This document shows, piece by piece, positions 10,890 through 54,547 of a stretch of DNA of 64,000 nucleotides (positions are counted from its first letter, which is position 1; every line of letters begins with the position of its first letter). The stretch comes from Solirubrobacteraceae bacterium. GTDB taxonomy: Bacteria > Actinomycetota > Thermoleophilia > Solirubrobacterales > Solirubrobacteraceae. Position numbers and translations under genes: made by a program. The stretch lies in contig DATAXK010000025.1 of NCBI GenBank assembly GCA_036266805.1, positions 54,497 through 118,496 of the forward strand. The letters are read 5' to 3'. Below the pieces are notes generated by a model. That model worked only from the letters and a program-made list of their open reading frames with translations. It was not told the origin of the DNA and did not search any database.

Positions 10890-11708
10890 GTGAAGCCGGA
10901 AGTTCTCATCTTCGGCATCTCGATCAAGACGTTCGGCGTCACGTTCGCGATCTGCTTCCTGGTCTGCGGCGCGATCGTCGCGCGTCGCCTGCGCGAGCTC
11001 GGCAAGCCGGTGGACTGGGCGTATGAGATCGTGTTCGCCGCTCTTATCGGGGGTTTGCTCGGAGCGCGCGGCTACTTCATCGTGCAGAACTACGGCGAAG
11101 TCAAGAACGACCTGTTCGGACACATCTTCTCCGGGTCTGGTTTGGTCTGGTATGGCGGCGCGATCGGCGGCGCGATCGCCGTGGTGGCTTGGATGCGCTG
11201 GCGCGACATGCTCAACCTGGCCGCCGTCGATATGTGCGCAACCGTGCTGGCGCTCGGCTATGGGATTGGGCGGATCGGCTGTCAGGTCTCCGGCGACGGC
11301 GACTACGGCATCCGCTCGAAACTGCCCTGGGCAATGGGCTATCCGCATGGCACGGTGCCAACGCCGCCGGGTGTGACCGTGCAGCCGACGCCGATCTACG
11401 AGACCGTCTCGATGTGCCTGCTCGCCTATGTCCTGTGGCAGTTGCGCGATCGTGTGCGGCCAGGAGTCATCTTTGGGCTGTACTTGGTGCTCAGCGGTTT
11501 GGAGCGGCTGCTGGTGGAGTTCGTGCGGCGCAACAAAGAGATCTTCGCGGGCTTGACCGCGCCGCAGTTGGAGAGCATCGTGCTGATGGCAATCGGCGTG
11601 GTTCTGCTCTGGGTGTTGACTCGTAGTGGGGGCTGGGCGGCACCGGGCAGGGGCCGTGGTGTCTCCGTTTCGGGTCGCCCCCCGCGTGCGCGCGCGAGCA
11701 CGGCTTGA
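10890..11708 (+). CDS. lgt: Prolipoprotein diacylglyceryl transferase
   Basis: GARGY, GLVWYGG, GRIGC, PTPIYE, RLLVEFVR; GTG start at 10890 after GAGGAG. Confidence 0.9.
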   Translation: MKPEVLIFGISIKTFGVTFAICFLVCGAIVARRLRELGKPVDWAYEIVFAALIGGLLGARGYFIVQNYGEVKNDLFGHIFSGSGLVWYGGAIGGAIAVVAWMRWRDMLNLAAVDMCATVLALGYGIGRIGCQVSGDGDYGIRSKLPWAMGYPHGTVPTPPGVTVQPTPIYETVSMCLLAYVLWQLRDRVRPGVIFGLYLVLSGLERLLVEFVRRNKEIFAGLTAPQLESIVLMAIGVVLLWVLTRSGGWAAPGRGRGVSVSGRPPRARASTA

Positions 11709-11870
11709 ACGAAGCCTGGATTAACGAAGCCTGGGGTTAGTGCGAGCGTTACGAACGCCTGAGTTAGCGAGCACCCGCGCGTGCGGGGGGCCATGCCTTT
11801 TTGCACTCCATCGCCAGCTTGTGTGTCGCGCGCCGAGTTCCGTCCCCTGCGAGCCGCCATAATCCAACGC

Positions 11871-13250
11871 ATGGCGACGGGAACTTCTCTTTCGCACGTC
11901 TTCCCACTGGGCAGCCGCCTCAACGAGCGCGGCCGGGTCGAGGTGGGGGGGTGCGACACGATCGAGCTTGCGCGGGAATTCGGCACGCCGGCGTATGTCG
12001 TCGCCGAAGACGATCTACGAGCGCGGGCGCGGGCGTTCGTGCAGGCGGGGTCCGCGGCCGGCCACGAGGACTTCCACGTGGTGTTCGCCTCCAAGGCGTT
12101 CCCGTGCACGGCGGTGCTGAGCCTGTTCGCCGAAGAGGGCCTGTGGTGCGACGTGGCCTCCGGTGGCGAGCTGCATCTTGCTTTGAACGCGGGATTCCCG
12201 CCCGAGCGGATTCTGATGCACGGCAACGCCAAGTCTGAGGCCGAGTTGCGCATGGGTTTGGAGCACGGGATCGGTCTGATCGTGATCGACAACTTCGACG
12301 AGATCGATCGACTCGAGCGACTCATCAATTCTTTCCAGCCGGCGCATGCGCCGGCTGGCCGGGCCGTGCATGCACGGCCCGGGACAACGCCGCATGCGGC
12401 GTTGTCTTCTCGCATAAGAGAAGGGGATGGGCAGCCCATCCTCATAAGGGCTACACCCGACGTCCGAGGAGACACCCACGAGAAGATCTCCACGGGTCAG
12501 GCCGACTCGAAGTTCGGCTTCTCGATGGCCGACATCCCTCTAGCGATCGAGCGCGTGCGGGCGGTTGCGGGTCTGGAGCTGCGGGGCATCCATGCCCACA
12601 TCGGCTCGCAGCTGCTCGAGTTGGAGCCCTACCGTCGCGAGGCCGAGGCGCTCGCGAAGATCGGCGACGGGGTGGGCGGATTCTCCACCTACGATCTCGG
12701 TGGCGGACTCGGCGTCGCATATGCGGAGACCCAGCATCCACCCGATATCGAGGAATGGGTGGGGGCGGTTCTCGGTGCCGCGCACGAGGCCGGGATCGAT
12801 CCCGGCAAGCGCGTGCTGGTCGAGCCGGGGCGCGCGCTCACGGCAAATGCGGGTGTCACCCTCTACACGGTGGAGAGCGTCAAGCGCAACGTCTCCACCT
12901 GGGTGGCGGTCGACGGCGGCATGTCCGACAACCTGCGCCCGATGCTCTACGGCGCCGCCTACGAAGCGCACGTCGTCGATCGCCTCTCCGATCCCGCGAG
13001 CGCCATCGGCTGCGTGCTGGCCGGCAAGCACTGCGAGTCCGGCGACGTTATCGTGCGCGAGGCACTGCTCGAGGACCCAAGGCCTGGAGACGTGATCGTG
13101 ACGCCCGCCACCGGCGCCTACGGGTTTGCGATGGCCAGCAACTACAACGGCGTGCCGCGGCCGCCGGTCGTGTTCTGCAAGGACGGCGAGGCCCGTATCG
13201 TGGTCAGGCGCGAGCGCTTCGAGGATCTCACGGCCCGCGATGTCCTCTGA
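11871..13250 (+). CDS. lysA: Diaminopimelate decarboxylase with a ~30-aa internal insertion
   Basis: FASKAF PLP Lys, DVASGGEL, SKFG, HAHIGSQ, DLGGG, EPGR, AGKHCESGD, GAYG...SNYN; CATAAT 7 nt before ATG 11871. Confidence 0.95.
   Translation: MATGTSLSHVFPLGSRLNERGRVEVGGCDTIELAREFGTPAYVVAEDDLRARARAFVQAGSAAGHEDFHVVFASKAFPCTAVLSLFAEEGLWCDVASGGELHLALNAGFPPERILMHGNAKSEAELRMGLEHGIGLIVIDNFDEIDRLERLINSFQPAHAPAGRAVHARPGTTPHAALSSRIREGDGQPILIRATPDVRGDTHEKISTGQADSKFGFSMADIPLAIERVRAVAGLELRGIHAHIGSQLLELEPYRREAEALAKIGDGVGGFSTYDLGGGLGVAYAETQHPPDIEEWVGAVLGAAHEAGIDPGKRVLVEPGRALTANAGVTLYTVESVKRNVSTWVAVDGGMSDNLRPMLYGAAYEAHVVDRLSDPASAIGCVLAGKHCESGDVIVREALLEDPRPGDVIVTPATGAYGFAMASNYNGVPRPPVVFCKDGEARIVVRRERFEDLTARDVL
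12335..12441. repeat. Array of perfect palindromes and hairpins inside lysA
   Basis: Three abutting perfect 24-bp palindromes at 12335-12358, 12359-12382 and 12383-12406, then two shorter hairpins. Confidence 0.95.
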
Positions 13251-53092: not shown

Positions 53093-54547
53093 GGCCCGTC
53101 GGGGTGCAGTCTTCTTGCTGTTTTCGCGGGCCAGCTCGACCAGTTCCGCCAGCTCCGCTTTGATGCTCTCGCCGAGCGAGTCGATGTCCGGCAGTGCGTC
53201 GAAGTCGCCCAGCAGGCCGAAGTTCATCTCGCCCGCGTAGGACATGATTGCCACCGCGAGCGCGTGGTTTTCGGGCAGAAAGGCCACCGGGAACACGCGC
53301 TCCATGCGCCGCCCGAGCACATACAGCGGGAACTGGGGCCCTGGCACGTTCGTCACGATCAGGTTGAACAGGCGCGTGGAGAAGTTCAGGCGCGAGGCCT
53401 GCGCCAGGATCGTGGGCGGCGCGAAGTTCTGCGCGCCGGCGATCACCTCCGCGCCGAGGGCCTGCTTTGACTCCTTCAGGCCGTCCATCGCGTGGCTGAC
53501 GAAGCGCAGGCGCTGCAGCGGGTCGGCGATGTACACGGGCAAGGGGCCCCGCATCACGACGATCCGGTTGCCGCCCTCGTGACGCTCGCCCACGGTGCGC
53601 ACCGAGACCGGCACGAGCGCTCTCATCTCCTTGCCCTCCGTGCGCACCCCGCGCTCAATCAAGAACGAGCGCAGAGCACCCGTCACGACGGCCAGGACCA
53701 CGTCGTTGACCGTGCCACCAAAGGCGTTCTTGACGAGCTTGAAGTCATCCAGCTGTGCCGCGATCCCGACAAAGCGCCGGTGCGGCCCGATCTCTACGTT
53801 CAAAGGTGTGTCGGGCGCCGGGTTCAGTCCGGCCCAAACGATCTCGCCGACGCCCTCCGCGGCCTCGCGCGCTCGCTCGAGCGTGCGCTCGGGATGGGTG
53901 AGCGCATGTACCGCCCCGCTCACCATCTCCACGCCCGCGCGTACCGCGCTGCGTACGCCCACCGCGACGAGCTCGGTCGCGTCCGGTTCCGGCTTCGGTT
54001 TCCACGCTCTGCCCGAATGACGCAAGGGCTCTGGCTCCGGTGCGAGGTCGAACAGGACCGTCGCGAGATCGACGCCCGCGATCCCGTCGATCAGCGAATG
54101 ATGGGTCTTGGATATCAGCGCGAAGCGGTCGCGGGCAGGGGCGCCATGGCCGTCCATCCTTGGATCGAGGCCCTCGATCAGCCACATCTCCCATAGGGGC
54201 TTGGAGCGGTCGAGCGCCTGCGAGAAGATGCGCGCCGTCAGGTTGCGCAACTGCTCCCAACTGCCCGGGGCCGGCAGCGCCGTGTGGCGCACGTGGAACT
54301 CGAGGTTGAAGCCCGGGTCGTCGACCCACACCGGACGGCCGCTGTCGAGCGCCGTATAGGCCAGCTTGTGGCGGTAGCGAGGCACGAGATGCAGACGCTT
54401 GCGGATCTGCTCGAGGAACTCCTCCATCGCCGGCGGCGGGCCCTCCAGCAACGTGAGCCCGCCCACGTGCATGTGCGAGTTGCGCCCCTCCTGGTGCAGG
54501 AAGGAGGCGTCCACCGCTGTGAGCCTGTCGAGGTGTTGCTGCGCCAT
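53036..54547 (-). CDS. Wax ester synthase/diacylglycerol acyltransferase (WS/DGAT)
   Basis: DASFL...MHVGG, KTHHSLIDG (HHxxxDG), GTVNDVVL, TNVPGPQ; TACTCT 6 nt before ATG 54547. Confidence 0.93.
   Translation of the reverse strand: MAQQHLDRLTAVDASFLHQEGRNSHMHVGGLTLLEGPPPAMEEFLEQIRKRLHLVPRYRHKLAYTALDSGRPVWVDDPGFNLEFHVRHTALPAPGSWEQLRNLTARIFSQALDRSKPLWEMWLIEGLDPRMDGHGAPARDRFALISKTHHSLIDGIAGVDLATVLFDLAPEPEPLRHSGRAWKPKPEPDATELVAVGVRSAVRAGVEMVSGAVHALTHPERTLERAREAAEGVGEIVWAGLNPAPDTPLNVEIGPHRRFVGIAAQLDDFKLVKNAFGGTVNDVVLAVVTGALRSFLIERGVRTEGKEMRALVPVSVRTVGERHEGGNRIVVMRGPLPVYIADPLQRLRFVSHAMDGLKESKQALGAEVIAGAQNFAPPTILAQASRLNFSTRLFNLIVTNVPGPQFPLYVLGRRMERVFPVAFLPENHALAVAIMSYAGEMNFGLLGDFDALPDIDSLGESIKAELAELVELARENSKKTAPRRAATSAVGQARQGRKERSVR

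Follow-up and report, generated by a model that had tools for sequence, protein, structure and literature searches.

A probable copy of a dispersed, perfectly symmetric hairpin-array repeat carried in frame by lysA in Solirubrobacteraceae

The lysA gene in a 64,000-nt window (the whole stretch of DNA analysed: positions 54,497 to 118,496 of the forward strand of contig DATAXK010000025.1, assembly GCA_036266805.1) of a Solirubrobacteraceae bacterium contains, in frame, three perfect 24-bp palindromes (12335-12406) that abut without spacer, each with 12 of 12 positions paired and a GCATGC centre, as an initial annotation of the same DNA had described. We consider it likely that the three palindromes represent one copy, carried as a passenger, of a hairpin-array element that is dispersed and non-autonomous and behaves like the Rickettsia palindromic elements (RPEs). 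Such an element would consist of an AT-richer A-end (..GCTGTT), three to six abutting 24-bp perfect palindromes centred on RCATGY, and a B-end (TTCC..). One copy would have landed, in the ancestor of a clade of about 17 species, in a helix-to-strand turn of LysA away from the pyridoxal phosphate (PLP) site; being GC-rich, stop-free and a multiple of three in length, it would be read through, adding a loop of 24-35 residues, rich in Pro, Ala, His, and Gly, that the enzyme tolerates. This copy would then have been vertically inherited, resized, and repeatedly deleted, and a different copy would have entered the same LysA turn independently in a second clade. The element would have no function specific to lysA.

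The genome-wide palindrome search that the initial annotation had recommended, carried out as a scan for CATG-centred dyads in the genome holding the window (G000), recovered 31 arrays of three to six units each, 126 units in all, with 105 distinct sequences. Unit centres are RCATGY (GCATGC or ACATGT), neighbouring centres lie 24 bp apart in 60 of 95 cases, and five of 1,260 inner pairs (outer two positions excluded) are mismatched genome-wide; the only conserved unit positions are CATG and the outer CC/GG or GAC/GTC. A perfect palindrome with 12-bp arms has, at 65.7% GC, a chance of about 0.275^12 = 1.9e-7 per centre, or about 0.6 expected per 3.17-Mb genome; G000 holds 149 palindromes with arms of at least 12, with a sharp peak in the distribution of arm lengths at exactly 12 (106 cases). 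When all G000 arrays were sorted, their two ends were found to differ: CC.G-type units are followed outward by AACAGCA.. and GAC...GTC-type units by TTCC.., and the GAC-type units adjoin the TTCC end in most arrays. The lysA copy holds both ends in slightly degenerate form (AAAGAAT.. on the left, read outward, and TTCT.. on the right), with the nearest matches to its A-end flank being AACAGAAT.. at C40:60237 and C17:11751; because it shows both family ends, it does not appear to have been made on the spot.

Gene positions around the arrays were taken from a trained codon-usage gene model, by which 29 of the 31 arrays are intergenic and two lie within genes (lysA and fliI). The ends of the intergenic arrays adjoin 26 starts and 31 stops, with no orientation bias; a role as terminator or mRNA end is unsupported in G000, given these counts and the lack of an orientation rule. 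One array, C7:5875, was called intragenic by a gene finder based only on GC content at third codon positions (GC3); this call was rejected, as the left part of the open reading frame (ORF) shows no sign of coding and the array precedes the start of the gene. The idea that the units are restriction sites (RCATGY is the NspI site and GCATGC the SphI site) was also rejected; there is no depletion outside the arrays, where the frequencies of RCATGY, GCATGC, and CATG are 0.97-0.99 times those expected from a Markov model. Stop-free units number 126/126, 124/126, and 126/126 in the three frames; since units are open in essentially every frame, an open reading frame is automatic and only the total length must fit.

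Of 19 genomes of the genus, 12 contain a pattern of three centres at the family spacing (RCATGY-N18-RCATGY-N18-RCATGY); the 12 genomes examined from other genera of the order all lack it. When 401 genomes of the order were drawn, 35 had the pattern, almost all of them belonging to three genera of one family (Solirubrobacteraceae), and reversed-pattern controls gave no matches in every genome except one, which had a single match. The lysA array is thus clearly not the single isolated case that would have reduced it to a curiosity. A limited literature search found no published description of the family, which is apparently new to the literature.

Coordinates of the lysA features are collected in Table 1. 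The whole array lies in frame in an ORF (11781..13250, plus strand) in which the ATG at 11871 is the likely start, and the product matches PF02784 (2.4e-47) and PF00278 (5e-17); G000 has one lysA copy (a single match at E<=1e-30). The linker of 35 aa stands between ..DRLERLI (helix) and QPILIRATPDV (strand), where most relatives (27 were searched first) have a turn of 0-12 aa (0-36 bp), e.g., AEGELADRSEG, so that the roughly 30 extra residues noted initially were recovered, as were the two smaller dyads that follow the array (12406-12423 and 12425-12441). Homologues of the B-end flank, TTCCCCGATAGG.., are present in L064, L068, L070, and L072.

Table 1. Features of lysA and its palindrome array in the window.
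Feature	Position	Strand	Basis or remark
lysA (diaminopimelate decarboxylase), 459 aa	11871..13250	+	ORF, Pfam, 1HKV aligned on both sides of the insert
Variable linker, 105 bp/35 codons, NSFQPAHAPAGRAVHARPGTTPHAALSSRIREGDG (element plus flanks)	12327..12431	+	boundaries set by tblastn anchors
A-end flank AATTCTTT, degenerate form of the family ..GCTGTT end	12327..12334	+	comparison with the ends of all G000 arrays
Unit 1, perfect 24-bp palindrome CCAGCCGGCGCA/TGCGCCGGCTGG, CC.G type	12335..12358	.	orthologous units perfect in 8 other species
Unit 2, perfect 24-bp palindrome CCGGGCCGTGCA/TGCACGGCCCGG	12359..12382	.	
Unit 3, perfect 24-bp palindrome GACAACGCCGCA/TGCGGCGTTGTC, GAC..GTC terminal type	12383..12406	.	
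B-end flank TTCTCGCATAAGAGAAGGGGATGGG, family consensus TTCC..	12407..12431	+	homologous flanks in relatives
Small hairpin CTTCTC (12406-12411)-GCATAA-GAGAAG (12418-12423)	12406-12423		overlaps B-end flank
17-bp near-palindrome GGATGGGC-A-GCCCATCC	12425..12441	.	straddles the junction of insert flank and native lysA codons

Turns that lead from helix to strand in a (beta/alpha)8 barrel are located on the side facing away from the active site. Alignment of the flanks to the M. tuberculosis LysA structure (1HKV) runs up to residue 148 and resumes at 153, with the insert falling between. An AlphaFold model of the G000 protein, built from a shallow alignment and used only for the secondary-structure context of the insert, gave a helix at 142-155, a predicted local distance difference test (pLDDT) score below 50 for residues 157-185, and a strand at 188-195. 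The LysA residues after the insert, including the PLP-lysine and other catalytic motifs, are invariant, and LysA from G000 and from L064 is 95.5% identical in amino acids at 23% divergence at four-fold sites; LysA is, from these comparisons, under purifying selection. The linker is a multiple of three in 80/80 relatives as well as in G000, G017, and G003, and the 11 array-bearing linkers have ten different lengths (84-264 bp). Because all linkers are multiples of three and LysA, encoded by a single-copy gene, is under purifying selection, the insert is most likely translated as a tolerated loop, the simplest reading being that the ribosome reads through it. One example of a tryptic peptide predicted from this loop is AVHARPGTTPHAALSSR.

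Arrays at the lysA turn were found in 11 species at the DNA level; a second set of 80 further species contributed eight of these, with 27/27 units perfect. LysA proteins retrieved from the best-matching JGI, ENA, and NCBI entries all had the insert (37/37), some with extra units. In a tree of LysA from which the linker had been left out, a 17-member clade contains nine filled and eight empty lineages, which are interleaved; two of the empty lineages, L066 and L067, whose linkers are 9 bp long, fall among G000, L064, and L065 (support 100/99). The filled members of this clade share a common unit order and homologous flanks (AATTCTTT.. and TTCCCCGAT..), and we read the clade as one old insertion that was followed by several deletions. 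A separate clade, (L111,(G003,G007)), holds a different insert of five to six units with other flanks, with G007 being empty; this insert is probably a second, independent event in the same turn. At least two independent lysA insertions and several later losses are thereby implied by the tree.

Some linkers have additional peculiarities. The L111 linker (OY970247.1; 264 bp/88 aa) contains five CATG-centred perfect units and a sixth palindrome, CCCATCGGCGCTAGCGCCGATGGG, which is also a perfect 24-bp unit with its centre changed from CATG to CTAG, a symmetric change in bases that a hairpin would leave unpaired. The L069 linker (CAWCFD010000001.1), as well as those of P0030, P0036, and P0037, carries, upstream of a complete A-end and three-unit array, an additional unit that is truncated (CCGGCCGGCACATGTGCC/TGTCAATGCTGAATCTGT); it looks as though an older unit's right arm had received a later element, and if this holds, arrays may grow by self-targeted insertion. 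In the LysA protein P0007 (JGI, 474 aa), unit 2 is interrupted by about 14 extra residues (GRT-DRRSTGSPIGQ-HARPG) and may represent a disrupted palindrome.

The second coding copy lies outside the window, in an ORF for a FliI-type ATPase of the flagellar/type III secretion type (C31:164131-165663; PF00006, PF18269, PF02874). The array (C31:164265-164361), which is in frame, has four units and an extra hairpin (GGGGGCGTGC-AA-GCACGCCCCC). Orthologues in G012, G001, and G009 read ..EVCLVG-IDRNRAPVS-AEVVGF.., and in G000 48 aa replace the 9-aa loop IDRNRAPVS. Because one unit spacing is 25 bp, the reading frame of the units changes midway. The proposal of a coding-tolerant palindromic element, made initially from the lysA copy, is thus supported by the 31 arrays, the stop-free units, and a second in-frame copy in fliI.

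Symmetry was counted on the 72-bp lysA arrays of nine species, which were aligned and scored at their three 10-bp stems; such an alignment of orthologues for covariation had also been recommended initially. All 270 cells (270/270) are Watson-Crick pairs, with no G·U; 17 of 30 stem pairs vary, all of them two-sidedly and none one-sidedly, and none of 500 shuffles reached these values, as compared to 24-43% pairing when sliding partners were used as a control. The expectation that symmetry rather than sequence is kept was therefore borne out. One example is the double swap GTGCATGCAC/GCACATGTGC in unit 2 between G000 and the orthologue in L064 and L065, which in the protein exchanges AVHAR for AAHVR. 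The same holds beyond lysA. Eighteen arrays of G418, the complete genome of the L064 organism, map to syntenic G000 flanks of 78-94% identity, and an array is present at 11 of these positions in G000; among 26 pairs of orthologous units, 23 of them at six syntenic sites and three in lysA, we counted 27 two-sided and no one-sided changes. One-sided changes do occur, in our reading, in the unpaired centre (CACGTG at G000 C27:158493 and CACG at G418 L160). Overall, array divergence is about one third of the four-fold-site rate (e.g., 0.083 vs. 0.233), and the rate at the varying array positions approaches, by our estimate, the neutral one.

The conserved feature thus appears to be the pairing of each unit within its own strand, as a 10-bp stem closed by a CATG loop, to the same degree for either strand. 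Since symmetry extends to non-conserved positions, base pairing is a better explanation than a dimeric protein site; since it includes no G·U and holds for both strands, DNA hairpins or a copying mechanism are favoured over selection on one RNA strand.

Changes per unit are over-dispersed (variance 2.76 vs. mean 1.04), with two units having five or more changes where 0.11 were expected; one highly changed unit, CCGACCCTTGCATGCAAGGGTCGG, recurs at another locus, and from this recurrence and the over-dispersion it follows that some units were replaced whole. Orthologous sites also differ in unit number (2 vs. 6 and 3 vs. 6), and at one site where G418 has three units G000 keeps exactly one half-unit, which would be a deletion scar. 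Between G000 C21:135682-135798 and G418 L165, the unit order is seemingly reversed, with CACCCCCGCACATGTGCGGGGGTG standing first in one and last in the other and the orientation of the flanks kept; because each unit equals its own reverse complement, inverting several adjacent units would alter nothing but their order.

The perfection of the units might be maintained by an established mutational process known from quasipalindromes, in which template switching (the Ripley model) is a replication error that makes both arms identical (PMC7202029, PMC3820800). Units would change only by two-sided steps that preserve Watson-Crick pairing or by whole-unit replacement: a mutation in one arm would turn a unit into a quasipalindrome, and template switching during replication would either revert it or copy it to the other arm, to which whole-unit exchange between arrays would also contribute. 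Reversion or two-sided change after a one-arm mutation matches the zero one-sided changes found here. If half of the arm mutations were fixed by template switching, pairs would change at about the neutral per-site rate, which is of the order observed. We favour such template-switch correction, tentatively, as the process that keeps the units perfect; the mechanism has been described for hotspots at single loci in laboratory strains, not for the maintenance of a repeat family, and its action here would be an extension of that role. A broader and more doubtful possibility is that the arrays are self-perfecting selfish DNA, which would be maintained by hairpin-templated copying, would exchange, gain, and lose units as modules, and would spread without a recognised type of transposase. 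Because the period equals eight codons and every frame is open, copies in permissive loops of essential genes (lysA, fliI) would become fast-evolving peptide loops, with amino acid changes dictated by DNA symmetry and not by what the protein does.

Known repeat families share part of these properties. RPEs, as summarised in PMC10969869 (originally described by Ogata et al. 2000 Science 290:347; 2002 Genome Res 12:808), are likewise short non-autonomous palindromic repeats found between genes and in frame in unrelated housekeeping genes, where they add a peptide at permissive surface positions and preserve the protein; no transposase is known for them either. In-frame insertion at permissive positions with an intact ORF was found here in both lysA and fliI, which places the coding copies with RPEs in kind. 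However, RPEs are single long hairpins of about 100-150 bp with a conserved sequence and encoded peptide, about half of them in ORFs, whereas the element described here has three to six separate 24-bp perfect palindromes whose arms differ per unit, has two of 31 copies within genes, and resides in a free-living, high-GC actinobacterial lineage; it is set apart from the RPE families by this architecture and by the description in PMC10969869, not by sequence comparison. Repetitive extragenic palindromic (REP) sequences of Proteobacteria, including bacterial interspersed mosaic elements (BIMEs) and REP doublets forming hairpins (REPINs), resemble it in having palindromic units of 20-40 bp that are often clustered and occupy dozens to hundreds of mostly extragenic sites, with hairpin formation as the conserved feature. 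REPs with a GTAG or CGTC tag were surveyed by Di Nocera et al. 2013, and some REPs lie inside genes (PMC3733652). They differ in being imperfect palindromes of conserved, tagged sequence, of which the GTAG type accompanies a REP-associated tyrosine transposase (RAYT); the dispersed, mostly extragenic units found here have no tag, no RAYT, no spacer, base-perfect stems, and 105 sequences among 126 units.

MITEs (miniature inverted-repeat transposable elements), too, are small, non-coding, and dispersed, vary in presence or absence between close genomes, and can make in-frame fusions (PMC10969869). Unlike MITEs, our arrays lack terminal inverted repeats, as their ends (..GCTGTT and TTCC..) differ, and have neither a target-site duplication (at the five to six filled/empty sites compared) nor an identified parent insertion sequence. 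CRISPR arrays are excluded by units that abut without spacer and differ from each other. Taken together, and judged from sequence features, the family appears to be REP/BIME-like in genomic habit and RPE-like in its coding copies, yet it lacks the traits by which either family is defined.

Evidence for a mobilising enzyme was sought by profile searches. RAYT (PF01797) gave no match in G000 or in any of the 18 congeners searched (31 related genomes are given as without RAYT), and the same search was positive in six control genomes; TnpB (PF07282), sought as a sign of mobilisation of the IS200/IS605 kind, was not found in the genus. IS110 (PF01548) was rejected as mobiliser because its copy counts do not track array counts (IS110 copies/pattern hits: 33/3 in G009, 1/20 in G000, and 5/0 in G004). 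No target-site duplication was found at the filled/empty junctions L159, L160, L162, L164, L169, and L172; at filled/empty sites, the whole intergenic stretch often differs. An apparent TTCC duplication around the L065 insert was discarded as part of the element's own ends, and it would imply a 74-bp, frame-breaking insertion.

Several points weigh against the reading of the lysA palindromes as a passenger copy whose units are kept perfect by correction. No enzyme or insertion signature was found, so that "mobile" would refer to dispersal, shared ends, and presence/absence only. The LysA structure model is poor overall (mean pLDDT 56.9), and we infer the presence of the insert in lysA mRNA or in LysA protein from the DNA. 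The symmetrising process is read from rates and from the lack of intermediates, and strong selection on pairing combined with unit swapping could look alike; the symmetric change of the CATG centre to CTAG in the L111 unit would not be predicted by a purely stem-based correction. Finally, given its long retention in many lineages, the lysA copy could be of some use.

Such a use could lie in the RNA: the array may have been co-opted as a device whose hairpins slow ribosomes or protect or destabilise the mRNA and thereby tune lysA and the downstream operon. The predicted fold of 12320-12450 is very stable, with five consecutive hairpins (-84.2 kcal/mol, z = -9.0; 0/200 shuffles as good), pairing is strictly conserved, and the insert is retained through substantial divergence in at least nine species and in many metagenome proteins. 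However, the 29 intergenic copies are as strictly paired, in either orientation and near starts and stops alike; the lysA copy was lost at least four times, leaving linkers down to 9-24 bp and the gene kept; the total lack of G·U is unlike selection on RNA only; and there is no Rfam match (best E 0.19-0.68, far below gathering scores). We therefore regard an RNA device as unlikely, and the initial suggestion of an mRNA or cruciform control structure is unsupported in view of both the 29 intergenic sites without orientation bias and the repeated loss from lysA in close relatives.

Retention of the insert as a peptide, i.e., as a surface loop rich in His, Pro, and Ala (..AHAP..HA..PHAA..) serving to bind a metal or a partner, seems very improbable. 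Both independent lysA insertions are in the frame in which CAT encodes His, and conservation of the peptide can be recognised in many proteins. The shared frame, though, concerns just two independent events, with a chance of 1 in 3, and the amino acid changes are coupled swaps dictated by DNA symmetry (AVHAR/AAHVR and QPAHAPAG/QSAHAPTG); the fliI copy changes frame midway, the region has no confident structure in the model, and close relatives lack the insert.

We give as little credence to an origin in lysA itself, by repeated template-switch or fold-back errors and with no inserted element. Template switching is a known source of inverted repeats and a process that perfects them (PMC7202029, PMC3820800), filled and empty sites show no target-site duplication, and the 17-bp near-palindrome spans the junction with native codons. 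Against this, the unit types, their order, and the A-end and B-end flanks are the same as in dozens of intergenic arrays, the flanks are, in our reading, AT-rich unlike lysA, and identical units occur at different loci; the initial suggestion that the palindromes originated as repeated template-switch products is contradicted by the family ends and unit types that the lysA copy carries. An assembly or polishing artefact (a fold-back chimera) is the least credible explanation, to the point of being negligible: absence of the exact 72-mer from a metagenome contig collection could be cited for it, which is uninformative because orthologues differ by compensated changes, whereas the array stands at the same codon position with species-specific compensated differences in long-read MFD and Illumina k141 (e.g., L075) assemblies and in JGI, ENA, and NCBI proteins, the reading frame is kept in every case, and the 18 G418 arrays lie on syntenic G000 flanks, 11 of which also bear an array.

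The orthologous series of arrays that many species carry in an essential single-copy gene represents a natural experiment, in which changes can be polarised and compared with neutral sites in lysA, and is the best material so far on how the family stays perfectly symmetric. Hundreds of pairs without a half-changed state and without G·U are hard to explain by selection alone and point to a mechanical symmetrising process that can be measured. Protein-coding palindromes, best known from the obligate intracellular Rickettsia, would be extended to free-living, high-GC soil Actinomycetota with a different architecture. For annotation, His/Pro/Ala-rich insertions of 24-88 residues in LysA, FliI, and probably other proteins of these metagenome-assembled genomes (MAGs) would have to be regarded as repeat-derived, not as domains or assembly errors.

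Two further dyads were observed next to the array. In the near-palindrome at the 3′ border of the insert, codons of the insert flank (GDG) pair with native lysA codons (QPI). In the matching bases of L064, six of eight pairs are, in our reading, kept and one shows a compensated change (T-A to C-G), consisting of a synonymous Asp codon paired with an Ile/Val change; this symmetry could be due to chance or to a symmetrising process that extends into native sequence. Between the upstream membrane-protein ORF and lysA, the window contains a member (11677-11791) of a second, unrelated palindrome family with the genome consensus ATGCCCCCCGCGCGCGCGGGGGGCAT and about 50 copies in G000; this member appears split into two 16-nt arms 83 nt apart, with a 12-nt direct repeat (AACGAAGCCTGG, two copies) in the gap.

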